Shown piece after piece: positions 9,254 to 36,918 of a DNA stretch of 64,000 nucleotides (position 1 is its first letter; each line of letters starts with the position of its first letter). The notes under the pieces are model-generated. The model did not search any database, had not been told where the DNA came from, and saw only the letters and a program-made list of their open reading frames with translations. Made by a program: the position numbers and the translations under genes. The stretch is from an uncultured Lachnospiraceae bacterium (lineage in GTDB: Bacteria > Bacillota > Clostridia > Oscillospirales > CAG-272): positions 1,364 through 65,363 of the forward strand of contig CAZFTE010000005.1 of NCBI GenBank assembly GCA_964521785.1. Direction: 5' to 3'.

Positions 9254-9316
9254 ATACCTTTTACCGTCAGTTTAAAACAAATTAAAATATATTATTACAA
9301 GAAAGAAGCTTTTATC

Positions 9317-10207: not shown

Positions 10208-10217
10208 GGAGTTTGAT

Positions 10218-11000: not shown

Positions 11001-12296
11001 ATGCTTTATTCAAACCTTACAGCAAACGAAAAGGGTCATCTTGCCATAAACGGCTATGACACCGTGGAGCTTGCAAAAAAATACGGCACTGCCCTCTACG
11101 TCATCGACGAGGACAAGCTTCGCGCAAACTGCCGTCTTTATATCGACTCCATGAAAAAGCATTTCGGCGAAGATTCCATGCCGCTCTACGCTTCCAAGGT
11201 ACTCTGCTTCACAGGTATCTACCGTATCGTTGCGGAATGTGGTATGGGCACGGACCTTGTTTCCGCAGGCGAGCTTTACACGGCTAAAAAAGCAGGTTTC
11301 CCCCTCGAAAAAGCCTTTTTCCACGGAAACAATAAAACAGACGCGGATATCGAATACGCTATCGAAAGTGGACTCGGCTATTTCGTAGTAGACAACGAAG
11401 AAGAGCTTAACGCCATCGACGAGATTGCGGGCAAGCACGGCATTACTCAAAAAGTGTTGCTCCGCATCACTCCCGGTATCGACCCTCACACTCACAAGGC
11501 TATCGTTACGGGCAGTGTGGATTCCAAATTCGGCTCTGCCATCGAAACAGGCAGAGCTTACGAGATGGTAAAAATGTCTTTGGCGAAAAAGAATGTTTCG
11601 CTCGAAGGCTTCCATTGCCACATCGGCTCTCAAATATTCGAATGTGAACCTTTCTGTGAAGCGGCAGACATCATGATAAAATTTATCGCTGATGTAAAGG
11701 CTAAATATTCATATAAAACAACTATACTCAACCTCGGCGGCGGCTTCGGCGTGCGCTATACGGAAAATGACCCCGTTATAGACATCGACGCGAATATCGC
11801 AAGCGTTGCTTCCCACGTAAAAAAACGTTGTGCCGAAGCAGGTGTCGATATGCCCAAGATACTTATGGAACCGGGCAGAAGCATCGTTGCCGATACAGGT
11901 ATCACTCTCTATACGGTAGGTTCCGTAAAAGAGATCGCAGACCTTAAAAATTACGTTTCCATAGACGGAGGTATGCCCGACAACCCGAGATACGCCCTCT
12001 ACTCCTCCGCATATACTGTAATGCTCGCTAGCGACGTAAACGCAAAAGCCGACTTTGAATGTACCATCGCAGGCAGATGTTGCGAGAGCGGCGACCTTAT
12101 CCAGGAAAACGTAATGCTCCCCAAACCCAAACGCGGCGATATCATCGCAGTTCTCACAACGGGCGCATATAACTACTCTATGGCTTCCAATTATAACAGG
12201 ATACCTCGTCCTGCAATACTTCTCGTAAGCAAAAACGGCGAGCATATCGCGGTAAGACGCGAAACATTCGAAGATCTTTGTCTTTGCGACAACTGA
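11001..12296 (+). CDS. lysA: diaminopimelate decarboxylase
   Basis: 431-aa ORF of the PLP-dependent Orn/DAP/Arg decarboxylase fold (YASKVL, GGGFGV, CESGD). Confidence 0.93.
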   Translation: MLYSNLTANEKGHLAINGYDTVELAKKYGTALYVIDEDKLRANCRLYIDSMKKHFGEDSMPLYASKVLCFTGIYRIVAECGMGTDLVSAGELYTAKKAGFPLEKAFFHGNNKTDADIEYAIESGLGYFVVDNEEELNAIDEIAGKHGITQKVLLRITPGIDPHTHKAIVTGSVDSKFGSAIETGRAYEMVKMSLAKKNVSLEGFHCHIGSQIFECEPFCEAADIMIKFIADVKAKYSYKTTILNLGGGFGVRYTENDPVIDIDANIASVASHVKKRCAEAGVDMPKILMEPGRSIVADTGITLYTVGSVKEIADLKNYVSIDGGMPDNPRYALYSSAYTVMLASDVNAKADFECTIAGRCCESGDLIQENVMLPKPKRGDIIAVLTTGAYNYSMASNYNRIPRPAILLVSKNGEHIAVRRETFEDLCLCDN

Positions 12297-12335: not shown

Positions 12336-13649
12336 ATGATAGTAACAAAATTCGGCGGCACATCAATGGCTAGTGCCGAACAGTTTAAAAAGGTCAAAAG
12401 CATTATTGACCAAAATCCCGAAAGACAGGTCGTTGTCGTTTCCGCCGCAGGCAAAAAAACAAGCGACGATATCAAAATAACAGACCTTCTTTACACACTT
12501 TACACCCACCTCCAGTACGGTGTTCCTTACACGGATATCTGGAACATGATAGAAGGCAGATATGTTGAGATAGCGACAGACCTCGGTCTTTCCTATGACA
12601 TCGCTTCCGACCTTGCAACGATCAAATCTCAGCTCAAAAAAGGCATGGACCAGAACTGCCTCATCAGCCGCGGCGAATACCTCTCCGCAAAGCTCATGAG
12701 CGCATACCTCGGTTTTGATTTTGTCGATTCCAAGGATATCATCCGCTTCACATACAGCGGCTCCGTTGACGTTGAAAGAAGCGAACAGAACTGCAAAAAA
12801 GTATTCTCAAGCCACGGAAAGATCGTTGTTCCCGGCTTCTACGGCGCTTACCCCAACGGCGAGATATGCCTCTTCTCCCGCGGCGGCTCCGATATAACAG
12901 GTTCCTACCTCGCAAGATTCTTGGACGCAAAGATATATGAAAACTGGACAGACGTTCCCGGCACTCTTACAGCAGACCCCAGGATCGTAGAAAACCCCAA
13001 GACCATCTCTCAGATCACATATACAGAACTTCGCGAGCTTTCCTACATGGGCGCGAACGTTTTGCATGAAGACAGTATCTCTCCTCTTCAGGAAAAGAAC
13101 ATCTCCATCAACATCAGAAACACGAACGAACCTTCTTGCCCCGGCACCATAATCAAACGCGACTGCACAGACGGCAGCTCCGTTATAACAGGTATCGCAG
13201 GCAAAAAAGACTTTGTTTCTTTCGATATCCTCAAGGACCATATGTCAACAGAGATCGGCTTTACACGCCGTTTGCTCGAAATTTTCGAAGATTACAAGAT
13301 AAATGTTGAACATCTTCCCACAGGTATAGATTCCGTAAGCGTTGTTGTTTCGGGTTCTTCCGTTGCAGGTTGTATGTACGACGTCGTTTCCAGAATCGAA
13401 AACGAACTCGGCGCAAAAGTAAATGCAAAGAAAGAGCTTGCGCTCATCGCTATCGTCGGCAGAAATATGGCAGGCAAGAGCGGCATCTGCGCAAGAATAT
13501 TCGCTTCTCTTTCCGGCATCGGCGTAAACATCAAGATGATCGCTCAGCCCCCGGATGAAACGAACATCATCGTCGGAGTTGACAACAGTGATTTCAAGAA
13601 AGCTATCAAAGCTCTCTACGAAGATTTCGAAAGCGCAGATTGGATCTGA
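12336..13649 (+). CDS. lysC: aspartate kinase
   Basis: 437-aa ORF with N-terminal KFGGTS kinase motif and a C-terminal ACT-like regulatory region. Confidence 0.9.
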   Translation: MIVTKFGGTSMASAEQFKKVKSIIDQNPERQVVVVSAAGKKTSDDIKITDLLYTLYTHLQYGVPYTDIWNMIEGRYVEIATDLGLSYDIASDLATIKSQLKKGMDQNCLISRGEYLSAKLMSAYLGFDFVDSKDIIRFTYSGSVDVERSEQNCKKVFSSHGKIVVPGFYGAYPNGEICLFSRGGSDITGSYLARFLDAKIYENWTDVPGTLTADPRIVENPKTISQITYTELRELSYMGANVLHEDSISPLQEKNISINIRNTNEPSCPGTIIKRDCTDGSSVITGIAGKKDFVSFDILKDHMSTEIGFTRRLLEIFEDYKINVEHLPTGIDSVSVVVSGSSVAGCMYDVVSRIENELGAKVNAKKELALIAIVGRNMAGKSGICARIFASLSGIGVNIKMIAQPPDETNIIVGVDNSDFKKAIKALYEDFESADWI

Positions 13650-13801: not shown

Positions 13802-14896
13802 TCAAGAAATTATATCAGCTATCCGTTGGCAAGCATGACCGTCTCCGTAAGGGTCTTTGGCATGAGCCATAGCGGCATACTCGCGCGGATCGTGCATAAC
13901 GCGAGAGAAGCCGTCATAAACGCTTTCATAAGTGTTGCCGATAAGGCGGACCGTTCCCGCCTCTATACATTCGGGGCGTTCGGTGGTGTTTCTCATAACA
14001 AGAACAGGGACACCGAAAGACGGAGCTTCTTCTTGTATTCCGCCGCTGTCAGTCAGCACGAGATACGCTCTCGACATGATGTTATGAAATTCGAACACAT
14101 CGAGCGGAGATATCAACTTCACTTGCTCGAAGCCATCAAACGCCTCGTGTGCGGCTCGTTGGACTTGCGGATTGGGATGTACAGGGTAAACAGCACAAAC
14201 GTCGCTGTGAGCGCTTAAAACCGCTTTTATCGCATCAAACATCTCCTTCATAGGCGCGCCGATGTTCTCTCGTCTGTGCGCCGTAAGCAATATCATTTTT
14301 CTTCCGTTTGCAAGATCGAGCGCGTAATGCGAAAAATCGCTCTTTACGGTGAAGCGCAACGCATCGATGACGGTGTTCCCCGTAACGAAAACATTTTCTC
14401 GTTTCTTCCCCTCCGCAATAAGTCGCTGTTCGGCGAGCTTCGTCGGCGCAAAATGAAAGCTCGCTATCGAATCCACCGCGACTCTGTTAAATTCCTCGGG
14501 GTAAGGCGAGTTTATATCATATGTGCGAAGCCCCGCCTCCACATGACCCACCGGTATACGCATATAAAAAGCAGCAAGCGCGGCTGCAAAAGCCGTTGTC
14601 GTATCACCATGCACCAACAGCATATCGCATTTTTCTTTTTCCAATACCTCGCGCATACCGCGCATAACTTTTTCGGTTATATCGAAAAGCGTTTGCCCAT
14701 CGCTCATTATATCGAGGTCGTGATCGGCAACCACTCCGAAAAAATCAAGCACAGACGAAAGCATCTCGCGGTGCTGACCTGTTACGCAAACGCTTACGCG
14801 AACATTTTTGCGCTTTTTAAGCTCTATTACCAAAGGACACATCTTTATCGCTTCGGGGCGAGTGCCGAAAACAAGCATTATATTTTTCAATTTCAA
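13802..14896 (-). CDS. wecB: UDP-N-acetylglucosamine 2-epimerase (non-hydrolysing)
   Basis: 364-aa ORF, FGTRPEAIKM N-terminus, WecB/MnaA family throughout. The ORF-track start codon is TTG. Confidence 0.9.
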   Translation of the reverse strand: MKLKNIMLVFGTRPEAIKMCPLVIELKKRKNVRVSVCVTGQHREMLSSVLDFFGVVADHDLDIMSDGQTLFDITEKVMRGMREVLEKEKCDMLLVHGDTTTAFAAALAAFYMRIPVGHVEAGLRTYDINSPYPEEFNRVAVDSIASFHFAPTKLAEQRLIAEGKKRENVFVTGNTVIDALRFTVKSDFSHYALDLANGRKMILLTAHRRENIGAPMKEMFDAIKAVLSAHSDVCAVYPVHPNPQVQRAAHEAFDGFEQVKLISPLDVFEFHNIMSRAYLVLTDSGGIQEEAPSFGVPVLVMRNTTERPECIEAGTVRLIGNTYESVYDGFSRVMHDPREYAAMAHAKDPYGDGHACQRIADIIS

Positions 14897-15020: not shown

Positions 15021-15066
15021 AAAGCAAAAAATGCTTTTCGCCGAAAACGAAAAGCATTTTTTATTT
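15021..15066. terminator. bidirectional intrinsic terminator ending the mrp-like operon
   Basis: 13-bp stem AAAATGCTTTTCG/CGAAAAGCATTTT flanked by an A-run and a T-run, directly after the stop codon at 15067. Confidence 0.75.
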
Positions 15067-17055
15067 TTAAAATACCAATACGATGAATACGAGTATCAGG
15101 CAAACGCCCAAGCCGGCCATGAGGAGCGCAAACGAGAAGTTTCTCGATATCTGCGATGTCGTCTGCTCGATAGTTTCGGATACTCGAGAGAAGCGTTTTG
15201 CGTGAGTGTGGTTATCATCGGCAAATATTCTATCCACCGCAAGACCGAGCGCATACGCAAACTTGTGCTTGTGTACGTTGACAGCCTCAAGTTCTTTGCT
15301 GTCGCGGAAGAATGTTTTGCGAAGCAAAAGGACAATAGCGTCCGTTATGTTATCTGCTATACGGCAAACCACGGAAAGCACGAATATGAGCGCTTTTCCG
15401 ATCGGCGCATAGAGAAGATGTTCCATGGAGAGTTTGTCGCTCCACGGGCAGATATACGTTTTTCTGCCGTCTTTTTTCTTGATAAGCACCGTTCTGATAA
15501 AGACGAAATAAACTATCGCGCCTATCGCGAGCGAGATAAGAACGCCCTTGATATTATTGAAAGAAAAATAGTTTATCTCTTCACCGAAAGCGTGTCCATC
15601 GGCAATGGAAAGCATAGAACCCGTTATCTTGTCGGAAAGTTTATGCGGCATAACTCCGAGAACTATCAAAGGAAGCGCGGAAAGACCGAGCGATACCTTC
15701 GAAGCGAGCGTAAGCTTCATCTTTTTGCCTTCGCCATCGCCTTTTTCTATAAATATGGCAACAAAAAGCTTTGTCATATATGCCGCGGTAAGACCGCCCG
15801 AGAAAAGGAATAGCCATTCAACAGCCGTTATAAGTGCGCCCGCGTGATGCGCATATTCAACTATGCTCTCATGAACGAGAGTTTTGGAAATGTATCCGCA
15901 AAATCCGGGAACACCCGCAAGACTGCAAGCGCCTATGAGGAACACTATCGCCAAGAAAGGCTTGCTTTTGCCGAAGCCACGCAATTTGTTGAGGTCGAGC
16001 GTATGTGCGCTCATATATATCGCGCCTGCCGCAAGGAAGAGCGTGAGCTTAACGATAGAATGGTTTATCATGTAAAGGAACGTGCCGTTTGCCGCAAGAG
16101 CATTTTCTTCCCCGAGAAGCGTTATCATCGCAACACCTGTAAGAATGAAGCCTATCTGAGAAAGAGAGGAGCAAGCGAGCGTTCTTTTTATGTTGATGGA
16201 GAATACCGCCAAAACAGCACCGAGTACCATTGTAACAGCGGCAAGAGCAAGGAGCGTATAGCCCCAGATCTTATCCTCGCGCAAAATATGACCTGTTATA
16301 ACGAGTATACCGAATACGCCCGCTTTTGTAAGTACACCCGAAAGAAGTGCGCTCGCAGGTGCGGGAGCAACAGGGTGCGCCTTGGGAAGCCAAATATGAA
16401 GCGGAAACATACCCGCTTTTGCACCAAAGCCGAAAAGCAAGCAGAATGCGGAAGCATAGAGCATATTGCTCTTTCCCGCCGCCTTAACAGCTTCATAGAG
16501 AGCGTCTATCTCAAGCGTTCCCGCAATGTGATAGAGCAAGAAAAGACCCATGAGGGCTACCATACCGCCTATAACGGCGATAGTGATATATGTCTTTCCC
16601 GCCGCCATCGCTTCCTTGCTCTCTTCCTGAACGACCCATACATAAGATGTAAACGACATTATCTCAAAGAAGATAAATGTTGTGAGAAGGTCTGCGGAAA
16701 GGAATACACCCATCGTCGCACCGAGCGTGAGCAAGAGGAAAAAGTTATATCTTGAAAGTTTGTGATGTCCTTTAAAATACTGAAGCGAAAGAAGCGCGGC
16801 GCAGAACCACATGAACGCGCTCACGATACCGTATACCGCGTGAAAATCCCCGAATTTAAACGAGAATCCGCAAACGGAAAGTTCAAAGTTCTCGCCATAT
16901 GCAAACACTGCGCAAAGCACTGTGATCGCAAGAGTTGCGGCGCACGCCAAAACAGATATAACGCCGCAAGCGTTTTCGTTCTTTTTGCCTACAGCGGCAG
17001 AAACAACGGCGGCAACAAAAGGCAGCAGCACCGCCAAGAAAATGAGTATATTCAT
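15067..17055 (-). CDS. NuoL/MrpA(N-terminal)-like antiporter subunit with a C-terminal lateral-helix-like extension
   Basis: 662-aa polytopic ORF with a proton-conducting antiporter core (GAKAGMFPLHIWLPKAHPVAPAPASALLSG). ATGA overlap with the upstream gene. The last ~96 aa are a charged amphipathic stretch plus a terminal TM. Confidence 0.8.
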   Translation of the reverse strand: MNILIFLAVLLPFVAAVVSAAVGKKNENACGVISVLACAATLAITVLCAVFAYGENFELSVCGFSFKFGDFHAVYGIVSAFMWFCAALLSLQYFKGHHKLSRYNFFLLLTLGATMGVFLSADLLTTFIFFEIMSFTSYVWVVQEESKEAMAAGKTYITIAVIGGMVALMGLFLLYHIAGTLEIDALYEAVKAAGKSNMLYASAFCLLFGFGAKAGMFPLHIWLPKAHPVAPAPASALLSGVLTKAGVFGILVITGHILREDKIWGYTLLALAAVTMVLGAVLAVFSINIKRTLACSSLSQIGFILTGVAMITLLGEENALAANGTFLYMINHSIVKLTLFLAAGAIYMSAHTLDLNKLRGFGKSKPFLAIVFLIGACSLAGVPGFCGYISKTLVHESIVEYAHHAGALITAVEWLFLFSGGLTAAYMTKLFVAIFIEKGDGEGKKMKLTLASKVSLGLSALPLIVLGVMPHKLSDKITGSMLSIADGHAFGEEINYFSFNNIKGVLISLAIGAIVYFVFIRTVLIKKKDGRKTYICPWSDKLSMEHLLYAPIGKALIFVLSVVCRIADNITDAIVLLLRKTFFRDSKELEAVNVHKHKFAYALGLAVDRIFADDNHTHAKRFSRVSETIEQTTSQISRNFSFALLMAGLGVCLILVFIVLVF

Positions 17056-18506
17056 ATTCCAACCACCTTCGTTATAATTTCAATAAAATTGCCCGAAAAG
17101 ATACCAAGTATCACACACATCACAGCGCAAACGAACATCGGAACCTTCATTCGCCAGCCTGCTTCATGAACGCCCGAAAGAGAAAGTTCGGCTCCCTCTT
17201 TGGGGAAATACGCCTTTATAACAACAGAGAGCGCGTAGATAGCCGTAAGGAATGCGGAGATCATAAGCACTATCGTGCCGACGATGGCAAGTGGAGCACC
17301 GTGAGCGATAGCGCCCTCGGCAATGAGCCATTTGCTTACAAAGCCGCAAAGCGGAGGTATACCGACAAGCGACATTGCCGCAACGGAGAAAAATGCAAAT
17401 GTAAACGGCATCTTTCTGCCCAATCCGTCAAGCTCGCTGACGTATTCTTTGCCTGCATGATGAAGCACCGCACCCGCACCGAAAAAGAGGCATATCTTTA
17501 TTACGGAGTGGAATATCATATGAGTGAACGAAGCGATAAGACCTTCGTTCGTCATAAGGGTAGCAGCGAAGATTATGTAAGAAAGGTTTGCGACCGTAGA
17601 ATATGCAAATCTTCTTTTGAAATGAGTCTGTTTGAGCGCTTTAGAAGAGCCGTAGAATATCGTGATGATAGCAAAGATCATCGCAACAGCCTGCGCCCAT
17701 GTTCCCGAAAGCACCTCTGTGCCATAGGAATAATAGATAAGTCTGATAACGGCAAATACGCCCGCCTTAACGACAGCCACCGCATGGAGGAGCGCCGTTA
17801 CGGGAGTGGGAGCAACGGAGGCGGAGGGGAGCCAACCGTGGAACGGGAATATGGCTGCCTTTACGCCGAAACCGAAAAATGCGAAAATGAAAAGTACGAG
17901 CGCTATCGTCTCGTCGCTTCCTACGTTGAGCGAACCGCCGAGCGTAAAGCTCTGCGCGCCACAGCTCACAAGATAAGCTACGCAAGAGAAAGCGAACGCC
18001 GCGCCGCCGAAAGAATACAACATATATTTTTTCGTTGCGGAAACACTCTTTTCGCTTCTGCCGTGCATAACGAGCGGTATAGTGAAAAGAGTGAGCAATT
18101 CATAGAAAAGGTACATCGTTGCGATACCTTCAGCATATGCAACGCCCATCACGGCACCAAAAGCCATAGTGAAGAATGCGTAGAACGCACCGAGGTGATC
18201 TTCATGAGCCATATATTCGAACGCATATACAGCCGTTATGGACCAAAGCGTTGCCGCAAGGCAGGAGAATATCTTGCCTGCGCCGTCTATACGGAGCGTG
18301 AACGATATTTTATCAGTAAAATGTATAAGCTCGAGCGCACCTTCGGGAGTGAATATCGCAAGGAGCCATACCGACACCGCGGAAATAAGCAATGTCGCAA
18401 AAGTAAAGATATTTCTCACCCTTGCTTTGCGAATGGGCAGAAAGTAGAGCAATATGCCGCAAAGTATGGAAAACAATATCGGAAAAAGCATAAATATTTT
18501 ATTCAT
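17052..18506 (-). CDS. mrpD: MrpD/NuoM/N-like antiporter subunit (paralogue 3)
   Basis: About 484 aa with motif GVKAAIFPFHGWLPSASVAPTPVTALLHA. The ORF-track start 18515 is GTG; ATG 18506 is preferred because GGTG lies upstream. Confidence 0.8.
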   Translation of the reverse strand: MNKIFMLFPILFSILCGILLYFLPIRKARVRNIFTFATLLISAVSVWLLAIFTPEGALELIHFTDKISFTLRIDGAGKIFSCLAATLWSITAVYAFEYMAHEDHLGAFYAFFTMAFGAVMGVAYAEGIATMYLFYELLTLFTIPLVMHGRSEKSVSATKKYMLYSFGGAAFAFSCVAYLVSCGAQSFTLGGSLNVGSDETIALVLFIFAFFGFGVKAAIFPFHGWLPSASVAPTPVTALLHAVAVVKAGVFAVIRLIYYSYGTEVLSGTWAQAVAMIFAIITIFYGSSKALKQTHFKRRFAYSTVANLSYIIFAATLMTNEGLIASFTHMIFHSVIKICLFFGAGAVLHHAGKEYVSELDGLGRKMPFTFAFFSVAAMSLVGIPPLCGFVSKWLIAEGAIAHGAPLAIVGTIVLMISAFLTAIYALSVVIKAYFPKEGAELSLSGVHEAGWRMKVPMFVCAVMCVILGIFSGNFIEIITKVVGI

Positions 18507-18516
18507 AATGTTCACC

Positions 18517-19968
18517 TTACATCGTGGAAGAAGCTATCTTTCCTATAATATCCGTAACGGGAGAGGCGAAAAGTCCACCCAATACCGCAATAACGGCAAG
18601 AATTATTATCGGAACAAGCATAAGCACGGGTTCTTTCTTTGTTTCTGTTATCTTTACGGCTTCTTCGCCCGGGAAGAAAGCGCGTATGGAAATCGTAAGG
18701 AGGTAGCCTGCCGTGAGAAGCGCTGAAACGAGCAATATTACAGGCACGAGCCAAGAGAGCGTTCCGTTCAGCGAATCGAGCGATGCGGTGGCGAGGTACC
18801 ATTTGCTTACAAAGCCGCCTGTGGGAGGGATACCTATAAGCGAGAGCGAGAGCAACGTAAAGCAAACTAATGTTACAGGCATCTTTTTGCCGATACCGTT
18901 GATATCGCCGACATTTGTTTTACCGTAAAGGAATATGACAGCGCCACAGCAAAGGAACAAGCCTATCTTTACGACAGAGTGGAAGATGACTTGCAAAAGT
19001 GCGCCTTCCATTCCCGCTTCCGAGAAAAGGAAAAGACCGCAAAGCACATATGCTATCTGGCTGACTGTGGAATACGCAAGACGTTTTTTGAATATCTTTT
19101 CACGATAAGCCATCATGGAACCCATGAGTACAGTTATGAGCGCAAGGCAAATGAGCGCCGTCTGCACCCAAGTTCCCGAAAGTACCTTAGCACCGACGGT
19201 AAAGTACGCCGTGCGGATTATCGCAAGAACGCCCGCTTTTGCAATGATAGCGGAAAGAAGCGCACTCGCGGGAGCCGGAGCAACAGGGTGTGCCGAGGGG
19301 AGCCAGCCGTGGAGTGGAAACATGCCCGCTTTTGCGCCGAATCCGATGCACATCGCAAAAACTACGGCGAGTACAAGTCCGTTTGCGCTCTCCATATTTC
19401 CGCCCGCATTAAACGTGAGCGTAGGAGCATATTCGTTCAAAACAAATATGCCGAAGAGCGCCGTGAAAGCGCCCGCAACGGAATAATAGAGATATTTCTT
19501 TGCCGCTGTAATAGACTCTTTGGAGAGCGTGTGGATAACGAGCGGCATGGAAAACAGCGTTACAAATTCATAGAAAATATACATGGAAACAAGACCGGAA
19601 GAAAGAGCCGCACCTATCATCGCTCCTTCGGAAAGGAGCATGAATGAAAAGAAGCGTTCTTCGTTCTTTTCGTGCTTCATGTAAACGCAAGCGTATATCA
19701 TGACCAAGAGCCAACCGATGCAGACAACGGCGCAAAACAATTTTGCCACGCCGTCAGATGAAAAGCCTATCGTTATCGCTTCGGTTATCTTGAAAACGCC
19801 CGTAGTCATCGTTTCGGAGAAAACGATGACAGCGCAGAATATCGTTTCAACGACCTGCATCGCAGTGATGAGCGCGAGCTTTGCTTTTCTGCTGTTTATT
19901 TTTTTGAGCAACGGTATCATAATGCCGCATATGAGCGGAAATACGACCGCAAGAATAAGTATAAACAT
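18517..19968 (-). CDS. mrpD: MrpD/NuoM/N-like antiporter subunit (paralogue 2)
   Basis: 483-aa polytopic ORF with motif GAKAGMFPLHGWLPSAHPVAPAPASALLSA. Confidence 0.8.
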   Translation of the reverse strand: MFILILAVVFPLICGIMIPLLKKINSRKAKLALITAMQVVETIFCAVIVFSETMTTGVFKITEAITIGFSSDGVAKLFCAVVCIGWLLVMIYACVYMKHEKNEERFFSFMLLSEGAMIGAALSSGLVSMYIFYEFVTLFSMPLVIHTLSKESITAAKKYLYYSVAGAFTALFGIFVLNEYAPTLTFNAGGNMESANGLVLAVVFAMCIGFGAKAGMFPLHGWLPSAHPVAPAPASALLSAIIAKAGVLAIIRTAYFTVGAKVLSGTWVQTALICLALITVLMGSMMAYREKIFKKRLAYSTVSQIAYVLCGLFLFSEAGMEGALLQVIFHSVVKIGLFLCCGAVIFLYGKTNVGDINGIGKKMPVTLVCFTLLSLSLIGIPPTGGFVSKWYLATASLDSLNGTLSWLVPVILLVSALLTAGYLLTISIRAFFPGEEAVKITETKKEPVLMLVPIIILAVIAVLGGLFASPVTDIIGKIASSTM

Positions 19969-19981
19969 TTAAACCTCTCTT

Positions 19982-21490
19982 TCAACGTACATTGATGAAA
20001 AGTTCCAATCCCTTTTCAAGCAAGGAGATGATAGGCTGAGAATTTAAGCCTACCGCAACGTTTATTGCCACAAAAACGATCATCGCAAACGCAAAAGGAG
20101 CTATCTTTGCTATCTTCTTTTTTGTTTTTTTGCTTTCTTCGTCGAGCGGCTTGAATATTACCAATACCGTGCGGAGGAAGTACATTACGTTGAGCATCGT
20201 ACTGATGGCAAGCGCAATAAGAACAAAATATGTTTTCGCACCGTTGCCGAAAGAGGCGAGCGCGAAAAGAAGCTTCGGCACGAATCCCAAGAATATCGGA
20301 ATACCTACCATGGAAAGCGAGCCTGCCAAGAATGCGCCGCCCGCAAATACATTTTTATGCGCGGAAGATGTGAGTGCATTGAAGTTCTGCTTGCCGTCTG
20401 CCGTGTCGCAAAGACCTCCGGCAGAAACGAAGAGCATTGACTTTGTAAGAGAGTGCGATGCTATCTGGAAGAGAGACGCAACGACAGCCGCTCTCGTTCC
20501 CAAGCCGAGACCCATATAGATATAACCTATCTGAGCCGCAGATGAAAAAGCGACCATAAAGTTTATGCTCTTTGCGCGGATAGCGGAAACGGAACCGAAT
20601 ATCATGCCGCATATACCGAACACGAACAAAACGTTCTGCACTCCGCTGTCAAGGAACACATCTATTCCGATAACGCGGAAAAGTATCTTGAGGAGCAACA
20701 CTATATAGCCTTTGGATATAACACCCGAAAGTATAGCGGAAGCCGCGGGAGTTGCCGTGCCGTATGTATCGGGCATCCAAAAATGGAACGGGAAAAGACC
20801 GCTCTTTATGGCAAGACCCGAAACTATAAGTCCTATTGCGACCGTAAGCGGGAGAGTATACTGTCCGCTCTTCCAAACAAGACCTATCGCTTCGTAAAGG
20901 CTGGGGAAAAGAAGCTGACCCGTGATTGCATAGAGCAAGATTATACCGATGAGCAGGAAGCCCGAACCGATAAGGCTGAATATCATGTATCTCGTTGCCG
21001 CGATAAGCGAGCGACCGCTCGAACGAGCCATGAGCAACGAGCAGGACGCGATAGTGCATATCTCGACAAATACGTATGCCGTGAATATATCGTTCGTATA
21101 GCAGAGCGAAGCAAGCGCCGCATGGCAAAGGTTTACCATTACATAGAAGAACTTCTGCTTATCCTCGGCAACATCGGAAAATATCCTGTTTCTGCCGCCG
21201 ATGATGGAAAAGAGCATCACCACTTCAAAGAGCAACGCAAAGAAAGGCTCCAAAAGTCCTGCGGATATCTCGTTGCCTATGGGCGCATCGTAATGACCCA
21301 TGCGGTAAACAAAATATCCTACCTCGGAATTAAGGTTATATAATATAACGGAAGCCGACATAACAGCGCCCGCCGTAAGGAGAAAGTACGTTACGAAACG
21401 GGCTTTCTTTCCGTTAAATGCATAGGCAACGACAGAACAGAAAAGAGAAAGAACTATCGTTATAAAAGGGGAATTCTTAATAAAGTCCAT
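19982..21490 (-). CDS. mrpD: MrpD/NuoN-like antiporter subunit (paralogue 1, most divergent)
   Basis: 502-aa polytopic ORF with motif KSGLFPFHFWMPDTYGTATPAASAILSG. GGAGG upstream of the ATG. Confidence 0.75.
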   Translation of the reverse strand: MDFIKNSPFITIVLSLFCSVVAYAFNGKKARFVTYFLLTAGAVMSASVILYNLNSEVGYFVYRMGHYDAPIGNEISAGLLEPFFALLFEVVMLFSIIGGRNRIFSDVAEDKQKFFYVMVNLCHAALASLCYTNDIFTAYVFVEICTIASCSLLMARSSGRSLIAATRYMIFSLIGSGFLLIGIILLYAITGQLLFPSLYEAIGLVWKSGQYTLPLTVAIGLIVSGLAIKSGLFPFHFWMPDTYGTATPAASAILSGVISKGYIVLLLKILFRVIGIDVFLDSGVQNVLFVFGICGMIFGSVSAIRAKSINFMVAFSSAAQIGYIYMGLGLGTRAAVVASLFQIASHSLTKSMLFVSAGGLCDTADGKQNFNALTSSAHKNVFAGGAFLAGSLSMVGIPIFLGFVPKLLFALASFGNGAKTYFVLIALAISTMLNVMYFLRTVLVIFKPLDEESKKTKKKIAKIAPFAFAMIVFVAINVAVGLNSQPIISLLEKGLELFINVR

Positions 21491-21862
21491 TTATTCCTCC
21501 TCGCTACGCAGATGCATATACATTTCATCGAGATTGAGCGTGTGATATTTTTTGTAAAGACGGACGCAGAGCGCGAGCATGAGCGCCGTAACGCTTACGG
21601 ATACGACGATACCCGTAAGAACGAGACCCGAGGGAATGGGATTGATGTAATCCGCAACATTTACCTCGCCTTCGGACGGTACGATCGGCGTAAGAGCGTT
21701 TTTGATATAGCCCATAGACGCAAGGAAAAGATATACGCCCGTATCCATGATGTTAAGACCCATTATCTTTTTGATAAGATTGCGGGAGAAAACGAGCATG
21801 GTAAAGCCTATCGCGAAAAGTATCATCGCAACAAGCTCTTCATAGTTTTGAATGATATTCAA
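21491..21862 (-). CDS. mrpC: MrpC/NuoK-like subunit
   Basis: Small 3-TM protein. The ORF-track start 21913 is TTG with a 55-nt overlap. I prefer TTG 21862, which overlaps the upstream stop as TTGA and has a G-rich SD. The start is uncertain (ATG 21826 is also possible). Confidence 0.7.
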   Translation of the reverse strand: MNIIQNYEELVAMILFAIGFTMLVFSRNLIKKIMGLNIMDTGVYLFLASMGYIKNALTPIVPSEGEVNVADYINPIPSGLVLTGIVVSVSVTALMLALCVRLYKKYHTLNLDEMYMHLRSEEE

Positions 21863-22767
21863 TTCATGCGCCCCCTTTTGAAAAGCATATAGAAGCTGTA
21901 CATCGTGCAACAAACGACAAGACCTACGGCAATATTGAGCGGCATGATAAGTCCGCCCGAAAGTATATCGCCGGGTGTGCCTGCCGAGATAATGGAATGA
22001 ACGCCGTTAAATTCGTTTCCCGTAAAGAATGAATAGCTCTTTGCAAGGCAATAGAAAGAAAGTGAGCAGATGCTTATGATCTTTACTTTCTTTTCGCTGA
22101 GAACCTTGAGCGCCTGTTCTTCGCCGTATACCATCGCGTAAAGGATAAATCCCGCGCCGAGTATAGCTCCGCCGGAGAAGCCGCCGCCGGGAGAAAGATG
22201 ACCGTTTACAAGGATATATACGCCAAAAACAAGTATGAGCGGAATGAGTATCCTTGCCATCGTTTTAACGATGGGGTCGCGAGAATAGTTGAGTATATCG
22301 CCAGATTCGTCCTTCGGCTTTTTCTTTCTGTCCTCCATAAGAATGAGTACGGCGCAAGTTGCCGTGAAAAGAACGAAAGATTCGCCGAGCGTATCGAACG
22401 CACGGTAGTCAAGTATCATACCCGCAACGGTATTGACAGCGCCTGTTTCATCTCTGCCGTTTACGACATAATGACCCGAAACGTCGTTCATCGTCGGAGT
22501 GTCCGTGTCGGCAAATCCGGGAAGCACCGCTACCGTAGCGATAAGAACACTTATAAGTATTATACAGAATATCGTTGAAAATACTCTGTATTCAAAAGCG
22601 GAAATTTTTTTCTCTTTCTTTTCGAGAGAAGTGATTATCTTGTTTTCGTCTTTGTCCGCTTTTTCGGAGCAAACTTTTTTCGCCTTGCTACCCTCGGATG
22701 CTTTTTCTGTAAGATCTATTTCGCCGTCGAGCCAACGGAGAAATCTTGCGGAGAATTTATTCTTCAT
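21859..22767 (-). CDS. mrpB: MrpB/MnhB-domain subunit with a charged N-terminal extension
   Basis: MnhB signature NTVAGMILDYRAFDTLGE. Start moved to ATG 22767 (AAGGAGG 6 nt upstream). About 60 aa of Lys/Glu-rich sequence precede the first TM. Confidence 0.75.
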   Translation of the reverse strand: MKNKFSARFLRWLDGEIDLTEKASEGSKAKKVCSEKADKDENKIITSLEKKEKKISAFEYRVFSTIFCIILISVLIATVAVLPGFADTDTPTMNDVSGHYVVNGRDETGAVNTVAGMILDYRAFDTLGESFVLFTATCAVLILMEDRKKKPKDESGDILNYSRDPIVKTMARILIPLILVFGVYILVNGHLSPGGGFSGGAILGAGFILYAMVYGEEQALKVLSEKKVKIISICSLSFYCLAKSYSFFTGNEFNGVHSIISAGTPGDILSGGLIMPLNIAVGLVVCCTMYSFYMLFKRGRMN

Positions 22768-23071
22768 TTTCTTCCTCCTTTTCGTCTTCGTCGGTTTCTT
22801 CCTTGTCAACTTCGTTATCTTTATCTATAAGGTGAAGTTTGCGGAGCGTAAGGAAGAAAAGTACGCCTGTGATACCCGCGCCGACAGCCGCCTCTGTTAT
22901 AGCAAGGTCGGGCGAACGCAACAAAAGCCAAACAACGGACATAACGATGCTGTATGAGGTGAATATTATTATCATCGTCATCGGCTTTTTCGAAAATGCC
23001 GTCGCAACGGCACAAACAACAAGAGAAATGAGAAGTATCACGCGGAATACGGTAAGCAATGTTTCAAGCAT
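22757..23071 (-). CDS. MbhD/DUF4040-like small subunit (equivalent to the MrpA C-terminal region)
   Basis: 104-aa, 3-TM protein (DLAITEAAVGAGITG) ending in an acidic tail DKEETDEDEKEEENEE. GGAGGG SD. Confidence 0.65.
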   Translation of the reverse strand: MLETLLTVFRVILLISLVVCAVATAFSKKPMTMIIIFTSYSIVMSVVWLLLRSPDLAITEAAVGAGITGVLFFLTLRKLHLIDKDNEVDKEETDEDEKEEENEE

Positions 23072-23405
23072 TTTCCTCGCCCTCCTTCGGAAGCTCGCAG
23101 TGTTCAGCCAAATGCTCGTCCGTCATATATTCAGCTTTTGTGAGCATATGAGATGTCAAGGGGCAAGTACACCACTGAATAAATACTATAAGCGCAAATT
23201 TCGCGGACATTATGTCGAATCCCGCCGCGATAACGCCGCCTATAAAGAAAAGTATCAAAACGATAGTATCGTTCATAGCGGCGCAATGTATGCGGTTGAG
23301 CGCGAAGCGGAAACGATATGTACCGAGTATGGAGATATAGAGCAAAACGAGCGCAGATATAAAGAATATCGCGATGATGCCGAATCTTATCCAATCCAAA
23401 ATCAT
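23064..23405 (-). CDS. mrpG: MrpG/MnhG subunit
   Basis: 113 aa with MnhG-like YRFRFALNRIHCAAMNDT motif. ATGA overlap with mrpF. Confidence 0.75.
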   Translation of the reverse strand: MILDWIRFGIIAIFFISALVLLYISILGTYRFRFALNRIHCAAMNDTIVLILFFIGGVIAAGFDIMSAKFALIVFIQWCTCPLTSHMLTKAEYMTDEHLAEHCELPKEGEENA

Positions 23406-23698
23406 TTTTTATCCCCCTTATTTCCGCCGAAAAGGTTGATATACATCTTGCAAAGTATCATTACGGAAAGGAAGCTCAATACGACGTAGATTATGCCGAC
23501 GTCGGGGAGGTAATTTTCCTTGAACAACAACGCAAGTATGCATATAGCGCAAACGACGATGGTCGTTATCATGTTGATACCGATGAAACGGTCTACCGTT
23601 CTTTTACCCGTTATCGTGCGGATAAGGCAGAGCAGCGCCGCTATACCGAGAAATATAAGTACCACACTGTAAAGGATATTATAAGCTGTTTCCAACAT
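23402..23698 (-). CDS. mrpF: MrpF/MnhF subunit
   Basis: 98 aa, 3 TM, with MnhF-like GKRTVDRFIGINMITT motif. Confidence 0.75.
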   Translation of the reverse strand: MLETAYNILYSVVLIFLGIAALLCLIRTITGKRTVDRFIGINMITTIVVCAICILALLFKENYLPDVGIIYVVLSFLSVMILCKMYINLFGGNKGDKK

Positions 23699-23700
23699 TA

Positions 23701-24174
23701 TTATTTTTCCATCCTTTCCAATATCTTAACGAATCTGCTGTTCTCTATTCCGTCGATGAACGAACGGTCAAGGCAGTGTACCGTATACTCGTCTCCGTTC
23801 TGGTCTATCGTGATAGTACCGGGAGTAAGAGTGATGGAGTTAGCCAAAAGCATACGTGAAAAGCTCTTTTTCAAGGGTATGTTCACTTTTACGACAGCAG
23901 GCGTAACCTTTCTTTCCTTGTTGAGAATGACGATGACGACGGAGTAATTCGCCTTCAACACTTCCCACACAAGAACGGCGCAATAAGCTATCAACAAGAC
24001 AGCATTTCGCCAAAAATAAAGCTCGGCTTTCGGAGAAAAACCAAGAGCTTTGACAGCAAAAATATACACAAGTGCCGCAACGGCTATACCGGAAACAACT
24101 ATTTCCGCCATACCCGCATCAAGCGTAAATCTGCCGTTCAAAAGTATCCACAGCACAAATAATAATATTGCCAT
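23701..24174 (-). CDS. mrpE: MrpE/MnhE subunit
   Basis: MnhE-like sequence (WILLNGRFTLD...). Start moved to ATG 24174 (AAAGGAAG upstream); the ORF-track N-terminal 33 aa run into AT-rich promoter DNA. Confidence 0.7.
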   Translation of the reverse strand: MAILLFVLWILLNGRFTLDAGMAEIVVSGIAVAALVYIFAVKALGFSPKAELYFWRNAVLLIAYCAVLVWEVLKANYSVVIVILNKERKVTPAVVKVNIPLKKSFSRMLLANSITLTPGTITIDQNGDEYTVHCLDRSFIDGIENSRFVKILERMEK

Positions 24175-24294: not shown

Positions 24295-24323
24295 ATTATA
24301 GCACTTAAAATTTTAAAATTCAA
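24295..24323 (-). promoter_or_regulatory. sigma-A-type promoter of the mrp-like operon
   Basis: On the minus strand: TTGAAT (24323-24318), 17-nt spacer, TATAAT (24300-24295). Confidence 0.55.
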
Positions 24324-24353: not shown

Positions 24354-24382
24354 TTGACACTGTTTTGGGAAAACTATATAAT
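24354..24382 (+). promoter_or_regulatory. consensus sigma-A promoter of rnfCDGEAB
   Basis: TTGACA (24354-24359), exactly 17-nt spacer, TATAAT (24377-24382). Confidence 0.7.
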
Positions 24383-24474: not shown

Positions 24475-25794
24475 ATGTCCTTTTTCCTTAAAGGCGTTCA
24501 CGTTCCGCACAGGAAGAATACCGCCGATTCGGCTCCCATAAAGATGACCGTTCCTAAGACGGTCATGATTCCAATGTCAATGCATATAGGAAAGCCGTCC
24601 GTCCCTGTCGTAAGTGTGGGAGATCACGTACATGTCGGCACTCTCATTGGCAAGCAGAACGGCGCAGTCTCTTCTCCCATCTATTCGAGCGTTTCGGGAA
24701 CGGTAAAAAAGATAGACAATATCCTGCTTGCAAACGGAATGTATTCAAAAGCCGTCGTCATAGTTTCCGACGGACTGCAAACAAAAGACCCGAGCATATC
24801 CCCTCCCATCATCGCTTGTAAAGAAGACCTTGTTTCGGCAATACAAAAAAGCGGCATCGTCGGGCTTGGCGGCGCGGGATTCCCGACATATATCAAATTC
24901 AATGTCAAAGATGTTTCGGCAATAGACGAGCTTATCATCAACGGAGCGGAGTGCGAACCGTATATCACGAGCGACACGCGCACTATGATAGACAAAGCGG
25001 ACGATATCGCTTTTGCCATATCCCTTATCAAAAAGCATCTCGGTATCAAAAAAGTCATCATCGGCATAGAGACCAATAAAAAAAGAGCCATCATCAAAAT
25101 GAAAGAGATCGCCGAAGATATAGACGGCGCAGAAGTCAAGGTGTTGCCGAGCGTTTATCCTCAGGGCGGCGAAAAAGTGCTTATCTATCACACGACAGGA
25201 AAAGTGGTTCCCGCGGGAAAATTACCGATAGATATCGGCTGCATCGTTTGCAACTGCACAACAATGGCGGCAATAGCAAAATTCGCAAAAACAGGTATGC
25301 CTTTGGTTGAAAAATGCGTAACCGTCGATGGAAGCGCCGTCAAAGAACCGCAAAACGTTATCGTTCCGATAGGCACGTCCATGGCTGATGTTTTTGAATT
25401 TTGCAAAGGATTCGTATCCGAACCGAAAAAGATACTCTACGGCGGACCGATGATGGGAATATCCGTCGCGAGCATAGATATGCCCGTACTCAAAAACACG
25501 AATGCCCTGCTCGCGTTCAATGAAAAAGACGCGCTCAGACCTAAAACGACACAGTGTATCCATTGCGGTATGTGCGTTTCGCACTGCCCTTTCGGGCTTT
25601 CTCCCATCGGAATAGCAAAAGCGTATAAAAGTGGAAACATCGAGGAGCTGAAGAAGCTTCGCGTCGATATCTGTATGGAATGTGGCTGTTGTTCCTATAT
25701 CTGCCCTGCAAAGCGCCCACTTGCGGAAACGAACAAGTTGGCAAAAAATATGCTTCGCGAATATGTCGCAAAGCAAAAGGAGATACAAAAATGA
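24475..25794 (+). CDS. rnfC: Rnf complex subunit C
   Basis: 439 aa with GLGGAGFPT and two ferredoxin-type clusters, CIHCGMCVSHCP and CMECGCCSYICP. Confidence 0.93.
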   Translation: MSFFLKGVHVPHRKNTADSAPIKMTVPKTVMIPMSMHIGKPSVPVVSVGDHVHVGTLIGKQNGAVSSPIYSSVSGTVKKIDNILLANGMYSKAVVIVSDGLQTKDPSISPPIIACKEDLVSAIQKSGIVGLGGAGFPTYIKFNVKDVSAIDELIINGAECEPYITSDTRTMIDKADDIAFAISLIKKHLGIKKVIIGIETNKKRAIIKMKEIAEDIDGAEVKVLPSVYPQGGEKVLIYHTTGKVVPAGKLPIDIGCIVCNCTTMAAIAKFAKTGMPLVEKCVTVDGSAVKEPQNVIVPIGTSMADVFEFCKGFVSEPKKILYGGPMMGISVASIDMPVLKNTNALLAFNEKDALRPKTTQCIHCGMCVSHCPFGLSPIGIAKAYKSGNIEELKKLRVDICMECGCCSYICPAKRPLAETNKLAKNMLREYVAKQKEIQK

Positions 25795-26714
25795 ACGAAC
25801 TTCATATTTCCGCTTCGCCTCATATATACTGTCCGCGCACGACGCAAAGCATAATGCTCGATGTTTTGATAGCGCTTTTACCCGCTTCTGTCGTCGGAAT
25901 ATTGATATTCGGCATAAGAGCGCTCGCTGTCATAGCCGTTTGCGTGTCATTTGCCGTGATATCGGAATTTATTTTCAATAAGATATGCAAAAAAGAAACT
26001 ACGGTGGGCGACCTCAGCGCCGCCGTTACGGGAACATTGCTCGCGCTGAATCTGCCTGCGGATATTCCGCTTTGGCAAGGCGCGATAGGTTCTGTTTTTG
26101 CAATAGTCATAGTCAAATGCCTTTTCGGCGGTATAGGTCAAAACTTTGCAAATCCCGCAATAACGGGGCGCGTATTCATGCTTATCACGTTCGGCTCGAT
26201 GACAACTTCCGCAATGCCGAAGATAGCGGATACCGCGTCAAGCGCCACACCGCTCGTTTCCCTTGCGAACGGCGAAAGCGTAAAGCTCTCAACGCTTCTG
26301 CTCGGAACGCACGGCGGCACCATCGGTGAGACCTGCATAATAGCGATATTGATAGGCGGCATATACCTCATCGTTCGCAAAGTGATATTGCCGCATACAC
26401 CGATAGCTTTTATAGCAACTGTGTTCGTTCTGTCTTTGGCTGTAACAAAAGACTTTTCATCGGCACTTGCGTATATCCTTTCGGGCGGTCTTTTCATCGG
26501 TGCGTTCTTTATGGCAACAGACTACGCCACGACACCGTTGACATCATGGGGCAAGGTGATATTCGGTATAGGCGCAGGTGTCATAACAGTGGTCATAAGA
26601 TTTTGGGGTTCATACCCGGAAGGCGTGTCGTTTGCGATACTCCTCATGAATATCTTGTCGCCTTATATCGATAAATTAACGGCGAAAAAGCCTTTCGGAG
26701 GTGCAAAAACATGA
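25791..26714 (+). CDS. rnfD: Rnf complex subunit D
   Basis: Polytopic NqrB/RnfD family (FFMATDYATTP). Start placed at ATG 25791, which makes an ATGA overlap with the rnfC stop. Confidence 0.92.
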   Translation: MNELHISASPHIYCPRTTQSIMLDVLIALLPASVVGILIFGIRALAVIAVCVSFAVISEFIFNKICKKETTVGDLSAAVTGTLLALNLPADIPLWQGAIGSVFAIVIVKCLFGGIGQNFANPAITGRVFMLITFGSMTTSAMPKIADTASSATPLVSLANGESVKLSTLLLGTHGGTIGETCIIAILIGGIYLIVRKVILPHTPIAFIATVFVLSLAVTKDFSSALAYILSGGLFIGAFFMATDYATTPLTSWGKVIFGIGAGVITVVIRFWGSYPEGVSFAILLMNILSPYIDKLTAKKPFGGAKT

Positions 26715-27874
26715 AAAGATCTTTTCAAAGCGTTATCGTGCTGACAGTAATATGCATCGTCATCTCCGCGCTTTTGGCGGCGGTAAACGCGATCACATTT
26801 CCGATAATAGAAAAAGCGGAAGCGCAAAAAGCGAACGAAGCTCTCTTGATAGTAATGCCGAACGGCAAAAGCTTTGAGGAGCTTTCGATGATAGAATACG
26901 ATCTTCCATCCTCCGTTACAAACGCATACCGCGCAGAAAACGGCGGATATGTTTTCAAAATGACCACTACGGGATATTCATCCGGGCTTGTCATAATGTG
27001 CGGCATCGATAATAACGGAAAAATAACAGGCGCCGTCTGTCTTGACAGCGGAGAAACATTGAGGCATGAAAAAACGTTCGGCGAAAGATTCATCGGGCTT
27101 GACAAAGACGGTGCCGACATCGTGGATACCATATCGGGTGCAACAAAGACGACTTCGGCTTATAAAAACGCGATAAAAGACGCATTCAATTCATTCATCA
27201 TCTTAAAAGGCGGCAGTGTTGATATTCGAACAGAAGACGAGATCCTTGCGGACGAGCTTTCTGTTGCTCTACCAAACGGCGAAAATTTCAAAAAAGAATT
27301 TATCATCGATGTTTTGGATGGTATCGACGCGATATATCTCGCCCAAAACGGCGAGGGATATGTTTTCTCGGTCAACGGAAGCTTTGTCGGAATAGATAAA
27401 AACGGAGATATCGTCGGCAAGGTCGATAGCCTCGCCGAACGCAAAGCGCTCGATGCTTACGCGATATACAAAAACAGTTCTCTTGATGAATTGGACATAT
27501 CCGTTTACGACGATATCTCGGACAAGATAACAAAAGCTTATAAAACAAGCGGCGGAAATTATGTATTTTCTCTCAGGGCTTCGGGATACGGAATAAACGG
27601 CGAATGGCAAGCCTCGGGCGAATATATCGTTATCGATATCTCGATAACGAGCGGCGGCAAAATAATCTCGTGCGTTACAAGAGAGCAACACGAAACAGAA
27701 GGCATCGGCTCCGTTTGCGCTTTGCCGTCATATTACGAAAGATATAACGGCAAAACATCGCAAACGCTCGATGAAGTAGACGCAATAAGCGGCGCGACAT
27801 TCACCCATAACGGTTACCGCGTTGCAGTCCTCAAGGCTTTGGAAGCCGTAGATATATTGGAGGGAGCAAAATAA
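26711..27874 (+). CDS. rnfG: Rnf complex subunit G, elongated, with two FMN-binding domains
   Basis: 387 aa with an N-terminal TM anchor. Two DxISGAT motifs (S142-T145 at 27134-27145; S360-T363 at 27788-27799). Three GG/EG/GN-YVF repeat starts. Confidence 0.85.
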   Translation: MKRSFQSVIVLTVICIVISALLAAVNAITFPIIEKAEAQKANEALLIVMPNGKSFEELSMIEYDLPSSVTNAYRAENGGYVFKMTTTGYSSGLVIMCGIDNNGKITGAVCLDSGETLRHEKTFGERFIGLDKDGADIVDTISGATKTTSAYKNAIKDAFNSFIILKGGSVDIRTEDEILADELSVALPNGENFKKEFIIDVLDGIDAIYLAQNGEGYVFSVNGSFVGIDKNGDIVGKVDSLAERKALDAYAIYKNSSLDELDISVYDDISDKITKAYKTSGGNYVFSLRASGYGINGEWQASGEYIVIDISITSGGKIISCVTREQHETEGIGSVCALPSYYERYNGKTSQTLDEVDAISGATFTHNGYRVAVLKALEAVDILEGAK

Positions 27875-27876
27875 AA

Positions 27877-28566: not shown

Positions 28567-28567
28567 T

Positions 28568-29167: not shown

Positions 29168-29185
29168 TTTCGGAGGTATTGATAT

Positions 29186-36914: not shown

Positions 36915-36918
36915 CATG

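Follow-up and report, generated by a model that had tools for sequence, protein, structure and literature searches.

Genomic characterization of a conserved ten-gene Mrp-type operon with four antiporter-like subunits in an uncultured Lachnospiraceae bacterium and related Clostridia

Our study examined a stretch of 64,000 nucleotides from an uncultured Lachnospiraceae bacterium (GenBank assembly GCA_964521785.1, contig CAZFTE010000005.1, positions 1,364 to 65,363; hereafter the window), and in particular an operon of ten open reading frames (ORFs) on its minus strand, at 15067-24174, that encodes the subunits of an Mrp-type complex. In the direction of transcription the first six products are MrpE (157 aa, 23701-24174; Pfam MNHE, 5.1e-30), MrpF (98 aa, 23402-23698; MrpF_PhaF, 6e-10), MrpG (113 aa, 23064-23405; PhaG_MnhG_YufB, 6e-12), an MbhD/DUF4040-like subunit (104 aa, 22757-23071; MbhD, 1.1e-19), a 302-aa MbhE+MnhB fusion protein at the position of MrpB (21859-22767; MbhE, 5e-8 over residues 78-155, and MnhB, 7e-28 over residues 166-290) and an MrpC/NuoK-like subunit (123 aa, 21491-21862; Oxidored_q2, 4.8e-24). 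Four antiporter-like subunits follow, namely D1, of the MrpD/MbhH/NuoN type (502 aa, 19982-21490; Proton_antipo_M, 2.2e-42), D2 and D3, both in the middle position (483 aa, 18517-19968; Proton_antipo_N and Proton_antipo_M, 2e-57; and 487 aa, 17052-18515; Proton_antipo_M, 1.3e-53, with a weak Proton_antipo_N match), and the terminal subunit L (662 aa, 15067-17055; Proton_antipo_M, 1e-58). There is almost no intergenic space. The F/G, G/MbhD, MbhD/B, B/C and D3/L pairs overlap by 4 (ATGA), 8, 11, 4 (TTGA) and 4 nt, respectively, the TTG start of mrpC lying across the preceding stop, and the remaining junctions are gaps of 0 (C/D1), 1 (D2/D3), 2 (E/F) and 13 nt (D1/D2). For MrpE, the start at 24174 was preferred over a longer ORF of 190 aa, based upon an AGGAAG ribosome-binding site and an orthologue median of 156 aa.

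All ten products passed the Pfam gathering score. Both the tight packing of ten genes with ATGA/TTGA overlaps and every Pfam family assignment proposed in an initial annotation of this DNA were confirmed. The gene order, E-F-G-MbhD-(MbhE+B)-C-D1-D2-D3-L, departs from the ABCDEFG order, lacks an intact mrpA and includes at least one mrpD-like gene, as defined for the group-3 Mrp systems. According to Pfam and NCBIfam, all seven Mrp subunit types (A-G) are encoded together, with MrpA represented by L, the MbhD-like protein and the MbhE domain. That this operon is not a chance assembly of reading frames follows from the E-values and from the synteny seen in approximately 70 other genomes.

The division of MrpA was examined against the reference model for this protein, NCBIfam TIGR00940, which has 793 positions. 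Subunit L aligned with positions 61-544, the MbhD-like protein with positions 621-703 and residues 72-149 of the fusion protein with positions 711-788. This alignment indicates that MrpA is split three ways, as the initial annotation had held in more general terms, with L corresponding to transmembrane helices (TM) 1-16 and the MbhD-like protein and MbhE domain together to TM17-21. The gene that had been annotated as mrpB does carry an MnhB domain; the product as a whole resembles MbsE in that MbhE and MnhB are joined in one chain, which begins with around 70 additional residues, and its orthologues are 295-332 aa in total length. Residues 1-70 of the fusion are rich in Lys and Glu and have no Pfam match, and few of their positions are conserved (W12 and G15). 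The nearest solved relatives of the small subunits were those of MBS and the membrane-bound hydrogenase (MBH), with Mrp next, and MrpC found its best solved relatives in MbsG and MbhG.

The four large subunits all retained the residues of a proton channel. The hallmarks of a functional antiporter-like subunit, namely TM5 Glu, TM7 Lys, TM8 Lys, TM11 His and TM12 Lys, which correspond to E144, K234, K265, H348 and E407 of Escherichia coli NuoM, were kept in all four proteins, with one substitution at these five positions in 140 sequences (35 sampled species for each subunit). The residues in question are invariant in D1 (E143, K229, K260, H346 and K406), D2 (E134, K213, K244, H330 and K389) and L (E131, K213, K244, H332 and K391), and in D3 E139, K219, H336 and K395 are invariant, while K250 was present in 34 of the 35 species. 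The initial annotation had described three MrpD/NuoM/N-like subunits and one NuoL-like subunit. Four such subunits are indeed present, but their affinities are mosaic, as D2 and D3 carry an N-terminal Pfam domain of the NuoL/MrpA type (weak in D3) without the C-terminal extension, and the core of L is MbhH/MrpD-like, yet its C-terminal lateral helix is of the NuoL/MrpA type. Among PDB entries D1 was best matched by MbsH, MbhH and MrpD, with NuoN lower down, and D3 by MbhH first, with MrpA and NuoL after it.

In a neighbour-joining tree of 35 species together with E. coli NuoL, NuoM, NuoN, HyfB, HyfD and HyfF and the large subunits of Peptoclostridium, which did not include Bacillus MrpA and MrpD and was poorly resolved at depth, D1, D2, D3 and L each formed an exclusive clade. 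D2 and D3 were sister clades with 36 % identity, and D1 was approximately 24 % identical to either. The three large subunits of Peptoclostridium were placed as counterparts of D1, of the D2/D3 ancestor and of L, and because of this placement the fourth channel is traced to the middle subunit, which was duplicated long ago.

Subunit L was further examined using an AlphaFold2 model (46 orthologues, pLDDT 84.5), in which a core of fourteen helices is followed by TM15 (499-523), a hairpin, surface helices at 544-581, 598-610 and 617-639, and TM16 (642-661). Foldseek placed the MrpA proteins of Bacillus pseudofirmus and Anoxybacillus (7qru_A and 6z16_A) at the top, followed by HycC and NuoL. By sequence, the core of L scored best against MbhH and MrpD, near-full-length alignment was obtained only to MbsH', and its score with the HyfB model was 245 bits, against a cut-off of 667. 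On the modelled fold, L is the equivalent of TM1-16 of MrpA, and of NuoL, HyfB and MbsH', and it ends in a lateral helix followed by an anchor helix. The TM15-TM16 connector, measured by alignment to the AlphaFold2 helix boundaries, is 118 aa in the window and has a family median of 129 aa (range 88-195 aa); it is 133 aa in L087, a distant locus, 101 aa in the Peptoclostridium homologue, which has three channels, approximately 80 aa in E. coli NuoL and approximately 106 aa in HyfB. A measure of the same distance by hydropathy only was rejected as confounded, since the first lateral helix is itself hydrophobic. The lengths fit a clamp that spans three neighbours rather than two, although the trend is not a clean one.

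The operon was found to be widespread and conserved. L has thousands of relatives in the databases, some of its clusters have more than 1,000 members, and the best 120 of them, all full-length orthologues at 52-100 % identity, came from uncultured Clostridia. A survey in which one genome per species was scanned gave 80 loci, from Oscillospiraceae, Acutalibacteraceae, Lachnospiraceae (Blautia, Acetatifactor, Coprococcus and Faecalimonas) and Christensenellales, with a few contigs that are probably mis-binned; the 426 confirmed stretches in the scan are not a species count, as one of the two peptides used for the search also occurs in the paralogue D2. The relatives recovered place the host among the Clostridia, in the vicinity of Acutalibacteraceae and Oscillospiraceae. 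When the ten window proteins were compared with these 80 loci by tblastn, the identical ten-gene order was present in every locus that was long enough, in answer to the survey of gene order that the initial annotation had called for, and the best match of each paralogue was its positional counterpart. The loci cover several families of Clostridia at 43-64 % identity, and a far more distant member, with an MrpF 34 % identical, has the same ten-gene operon. In approximately 70 genomes all of the genes were intact and translationally coupled.

The residues of the cation path were taken from the proposal of Steiner and Sazanov, in which Na+ passes MrpF D35, MrpA E706, D792 and E796, and MrpC H37/H40 or the equivalent Asp of MBH (PMC7419157). 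The coupling and exit-site residues are of the MBH/MBS type and were all kept in the present clade. E60 of the MbhD-like protein (MBH E69d) and D40 of MrpC (MBH D37g) are invariant, D125 and E129 are conserved in the MbhE part of the fusion within the motif YRAFDTLGE, and E143 of D1, which is also among the proposed coupling/exit-site residues, is conserved. The position of D35f gave a different result. Alignment to MbsB, MbhB and MrpF of the solved structures showed Asn42 of MrpF at this site, which is Asp in Mrp, MBH and MBS. Asn42 was found in 71/71 orthologues, Asn is present in Peptoclostridium too, and among the top 150 representative clusters from a library of 1.8 billion proteins, 148 have Asn and two have Ser. 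The MrpF Asn is, as judged from these alignments, a clade-level signature.

No redox module was detected in cis. The E. coli proteins NuoH, HyfC, NuoB, HyfI, NuoCD, HyfG, NuoA and NuoJ, used as tblastn queries, had no match among the window and 82 related loci, a total of 1.58 Mb. By this search, the operon is accompanied neither by the NiFe-hydrogenase-like module of MBH/MBS (MbhJ/K/L/N, the counterparts of NuoB/C/D/I) and its membrane connector (MbhM/NuoH) nor by HyfC, HyfG and HyfI of formate hydrogenlyase-2 (Hyf), and of complex I/NDH-1 only the NuoK-like MrpC and the antiporter-like subunits were present. None of the orthologous loci (80-82) carries a hydrogenase or dehydrogenase module that the window could have lost, and the genes flanking the 80 loci are not conserved, with no family in more than nine of them; those families that recurred were judged by eye to be housekeeping genes or Rnf subunits. 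In the rest of the window, where most of the larger ORFs were scanned, the products were housekeeping proteins or had no Pfam match, and no hydrogenase or ATP synthase was seen. These searches uphold the initial description of a free-standing, extended membrane arm with four antiporter-like subunits and MBH-type order. MBH carries its redox module at the site of MrpA in Mrp (PMC7419157). In the complex predicted from this operon, L stands at this site, and the opposite end is occupied by MrpE, MrpF and MrpG, as in Mrp.

Taken together, our study established which genes make up the operon, that they are conserved, that the channel residues are kept, how L folds and that no redox module lies in cis. 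We consider it likely that the operon encodes a self-contained group-3 Mrp cation/proton antiporter (CPA3, TC 2.A.63) with two extra proton channels, on the same plan as the membrane part of Mrp, MBH and MBS. In such a complex, MrpE, MrpF, MrpG, the MnhB domain, the MbhD and MbhE domains and MrpC would form the cation module. The proton channels would form a row in gene order, D1-D2-D3-L, with D1 next to MrpC, and the long lateral helix and final TM helix of L would reach back over these channels as a clamp, in the manner of MrpA and NuoL. Compared to a Bacillus-type Mrp, two channels would have been inserted, one of them already in the three-channel relatives and the second by duplication of the middle subunit. 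If homology is a guide to the order of assembly, to the passage of one H+ through each channel, to the cation and to the direction of transport, exchange would most likely be electrogenic, with several H+ moving in for Na+ moving out and an H+/Na+ ratio above the value of approximately 2 assumed for Mrp. A higher ratio would allow fermenters with a low energy yield to expel Na+ at the expense of the proton-motive force in the Na+-rich gut, and would couple the cycling of H+ to that of Na+ in these cells, the Rnf circuit included. It is conceivable, but doubtful, that the clade is a distinct high-ratio class of Mrp (3-4 H+ per Na+) for which the MrpF Asn is the marker.

Several observations weigh against a Na+/H+ antiporter of this kind. 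Na+/H+ antiport is attributed to the clade by homology, and the order of the subunits in the complex is likewise read from gene order and homology. Even in canonical Mrp, neither the H+/Na+ ratio nor a rule of one proton for each channel is settled (PMC7419157). The length of the connector does not track the number of channels cleanly, given the value for HyfB (~106 aa) and the 88-195 aa range within the family, and parts of the connector in the L model are of low confidence. Finally, D35f, which lies on the route proposed for Na+ entry, shows high conservation and has been a target of mutagenesis in Mrp (PMC7419157), so its replacement by an invariant Asn may indicate that cation entry, or the ion used, differs in this clade.

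This last point bears on an alternative in which the operon is a stand-alone CPA3 system with another role, such as K+/H+ or Ca2+/H+ exchange or MrpF-linked bile-salt tolerance, which we regard as unlikely. In that case the neutral Asn of MrpF would be the mark of the altered function. The change from Asp to Asn at the proposed cation entry site extends across the whole clade, and the record titles place the hosts in bile-exposed gut habitats. Mrp systems that exchange K+/H+ and Ca2+/H+ exist, and MrpF of B. subtilis aids tolerance of bile acids (PMC5703873). However, the acidic coupling and exit residues common to the Na+-dependent MBH and MBS were all retained. Asn is also still able to ligate Na+. 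The present evidence favours none of these ions over another.

It is less probable still that the four channels are the membrane arm of a respiratory enzyme, driven by a redox module encoded elsewhere (Rnf, a hydrogenase or a formate dehydrogenase). The initial annotation had named Rnf as a docking partner, as a complete rnfCDGEAB operon (24475-29989) is transcribed divergently, approximately 300 bp away. The same divergent layout was seen in the six closest relatives and in no others, and in one Blautia locus rnf lies downstream, behind a terminator-like hairpin. In Clostridium aceticum, where clusters for multisubunit antiporters are uncharacterized, one such cluster adjoins formate hydrogenlyase genes (PMC4600107). 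Against these observations, rnf adjoined the operon in only 8 of approximately 70 loci, in two arrangements, and the connector of the NuoH/MbhM/HyfC type and the NuoB- and NuoD-type subunits were among the proteins not found in the window and the 82 loci. In addition, the site of the MBH redox module is taken by L, with its own lateral helix and anchor (PMC7419157), and the other end is capped by MrpE, MrpF and MrpG, which leaves both ends of the predicted complex occupied as in Mrp and a docked Rnf unsupported. The adjacency of rnf suggests a functional link in ion cycling, rather than a physical partnership. To our knowledge, all other known complexes with at least three antiporter-like subunits are redox-driven, which favours a redox partner; yet Rnf has an unrelated, NQR-like architecture, and we know of no interface between it and Mrp-type subunits. 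A specific form of this idea, in which the ten-subunit, four-channel arm would move the ions for a hitherto undescribed supercomplex whose redox half, for example Rnf, is encoded in trans, rests on the divergence of rnf from the same 300 bp region in the window and its closest relatives, and the evidence argues against it, so that we give it slightly less credence still.

That the extra D-like genes are recent or decaying duplicates within an ordinary one- or two-channel Mrp, as their adjacency and similar size might suggest and as the initial annotation had asked to be checked, can be set aside almost entirely, given that D2 and D3 share 36 % identity and D1 24 % with either, that each has its own clade across families of Clostridia, and that their catalytic residues are invariant in genes that remain intact and translationally coupled in approximately 70 genomes.

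With a self-contained group-3 antiporter as the favoured interpretation, the novelty of the operon is narrower than a comparison with canonical mrpABCDEFG, as made in the initial annotation, would imply. Stand-alone group-3 operons and systems with several mrpD genes are already on record (PMC8415708, PMC6305446 and PMC7784846), and group-3 Mrp is recognized by an irregular order or a missing mrpA, its mrpD being described as 'sometimes with multiple copies' (PMC5703873 and PMC8415708). What is new here, within the known group-3 Mrp, is the combination of four conserved channels, a split MrpA and the MrpF Asn. In the literature that we searched, neither biochemical work on a clostridial complex with three or four channels nor an assay of a member of this clade was found.

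The stand-alone mrpEFGBB'CD operon of Pyrococcus furiosus (PF1147-53) has been deleted and tied to pH and Na+ physiology (PMC8415708). It resembles the present operon in the order of E-F-G, the MrpB-domain genes, C and D, in the absence of a full-length mrpA or a redox module and in its MBH/MBS-like small subunits. It differs in having one antiporter-like subunit and no terminal subunit of the MrpA-N/NuoL type, as opposed to four here, one of which bears a lateral helix. The fusion of MbhE to MnhB in the present operon is a further difference. The Mrp complexes of Bacillus and Anoxybacillus (mrpABCDEFG; 6Z16 and 7QRU; PMC7419157) share the seven subunit types, the channel residues and the DTLGE exit motif, and L models best onto their MrpA. 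Compared to these, the operon in the window has two additional MrpD-like subunits, MrpA in three pieces, another gene order, an MBH-like Asp rather than His/His at the MrpC coupling site and Asn in place of MrpF D35.

In Thermococcales, MBH (6CFW) and MBS (6U8Y) have membrane arms with the same gene order, and these gave the best sequence matches for MrpF, MrpC, the MbhD-like protein and all four large subunits. The MbhE+MnhB fusion is similar to MbsE, and L to MbsH' over nearly its full length. However, the operon has no homologues of MbhI/J/K/L/M/N or MbsJ-N, and it has four antiporter-like subunits, whereas MBH has one and MBS two.

Three-channel clusters are known from the cultured Peptoclostridium acidaminophilum (EAL2_RS12435-12475), whose genes are named generically in RefSeq, and from the acetogenic NPL-UPA2 metagenome-assembled genome, which has 'MrpEFGBBBCD, MrpDD' along with Rnf and a Na+ A-type ATPase (PMC6305446). 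Order and subunit types are alike in these clusters, and Peptoclostridium also shares the MrpF Asn, with its first and third large subunits (Pac_1 and Pac_3) equivalent to D1 and L. These clusters have one middle subunit in place of D2 and D3, separate MbhE and MnhB, and a shorter L connector (101 aa in Peptoclostridium, compared to 118-129 aa). Nitrospira has two extra NuoL/M-like genes after mrpA-G (PMC7784846). Natranaerobius was considered as a precedent with three mrpB genes and was rejected, as the main text of the cited paper contains no such operon.

A row of antiporter-like subunits lengthened by duplication is also seen in E. coli Hyf (HyfB, HyfD and HyfF) and in '2M' complex I, which has four such subunits according to the account of Chadwick et al. 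2018 cited in PMC12342949. These enzymes differ in being redox-driven, with a Q-module or hydrogenase subunits of which none occurs here. The lateral helix of the terminal subunit in 2M complex I is reportedly lengthened as well. A further cluster with four antiporter-like genes, an oddly ordered complex I cluster, was observed on the Phyllobacterium zundukense plasmid NZ_CP017942 (locus L084, 6107-15272), with the order nuoJ, nuoK, an MrpD-like gene (487 aa), a hypothetical gene (84 aa), 'MrpD' (586 aa), nuoM, nuoN, nuoA, nuoB, nuoC and nuoD. The first of its MrpD-like proteins fell with the clade of D2, D3 and the middle Peptoclostridium subunit (Pac_2) in our tree, and many Rhizobium and Sinorhizobium plasmids gave similar matches.

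The proton-pumping arm of complex I is considered to have descended from Mrp, and it is debated whether every antiporter-like subunit translocates one proton per cycle. With the present operon, a series of stand-alone systems appears, with one channel in P. furiosus, two in Bacillus, three in Peptoclostridium and NPL-UPA2 and four in this clade, none of which has a redox module, and H+/Na+ ratios determined along this series would test the one-proton rule directly. The invariant change from Asp to Asn in MrpF likewise offers a ready site at which to probe how Na+ enters, a point of dispute. Lachnospiraceae, Oscillospiraceae and their relatives, in which the four-channel form is conserved, are dominant in the gut and rumen, and for this reason this form probably has a major part in the Na+/H+ balance and Rnf-based energy conservation of these habitats.

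The initial annotation had bounded the operon by a promoter and a strong terminator, and candidates for both were recovered. A promoter-like site on the minus strand (TTGAAT-17-TG-TATAAT, 24295-24323), a consensus match only (10/12, with an extended -10 TG), lies approximately 120 nt upstream of the MrpE start. Directly after the last stop, a terminator-like hairpin of up to 18 pairs (15025-15063, both strands), with T/A runs on either side, divides the operon from a UDP-GlcNAc 2-epimerase gene (13802-14896). On the other side, a perfect sigma-70 site faces rnfC (TTGACA-17-TATAAT, 24354-24382, plus strand, 12/12); this and the mrp promoter-like site stand back to back, with approximately 30 bp between their -35 boxes. 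The mrpE-rnfC intergenic region had no shared operator or Rfam element, and weak AT-rich palindromes only.

Within the rnf operon, RnfG (26711-27874, plus strand) has 387 aa and is a tandem duplication of FMN_bind, seen as two Pfam stretches, whose N- and C-terminal halves share 33 % identity (E 6e-13). RnfG is normally about half this size. The S-G-A-T flavinylation motif is kept in both halves, so that two covalent FMNs may be possible, and an ApbE flavin transferase gene lies beyond the rnf operon (30944-31966, minus strand). The 387-aa RnfG was only partly matched in several relatives.

Elsewhere in the window, six ORFs of 290-484 aa had no Pfam match at E ≤1e-5 (32030-33001 and 46014-47318 on the minus strand; 36865-38319, 38568-39953, 39904-40776 and 44348-45307 on the plus strand), some of which may be wrong-strand artefacts of greedy ORF choice (compare 9272-10477). 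A lysine riboswitch (RF00168, 66.5 bits; 8996-9170, plus strand) precedes the plus-strand ORFs 9317-10207 and 10200-10955, which are followed by genes for diaminopimelate decarboxylase (11001-12296) and aspartokinase (12336-13649) in an ordinary lysine-biosynthesis operon.

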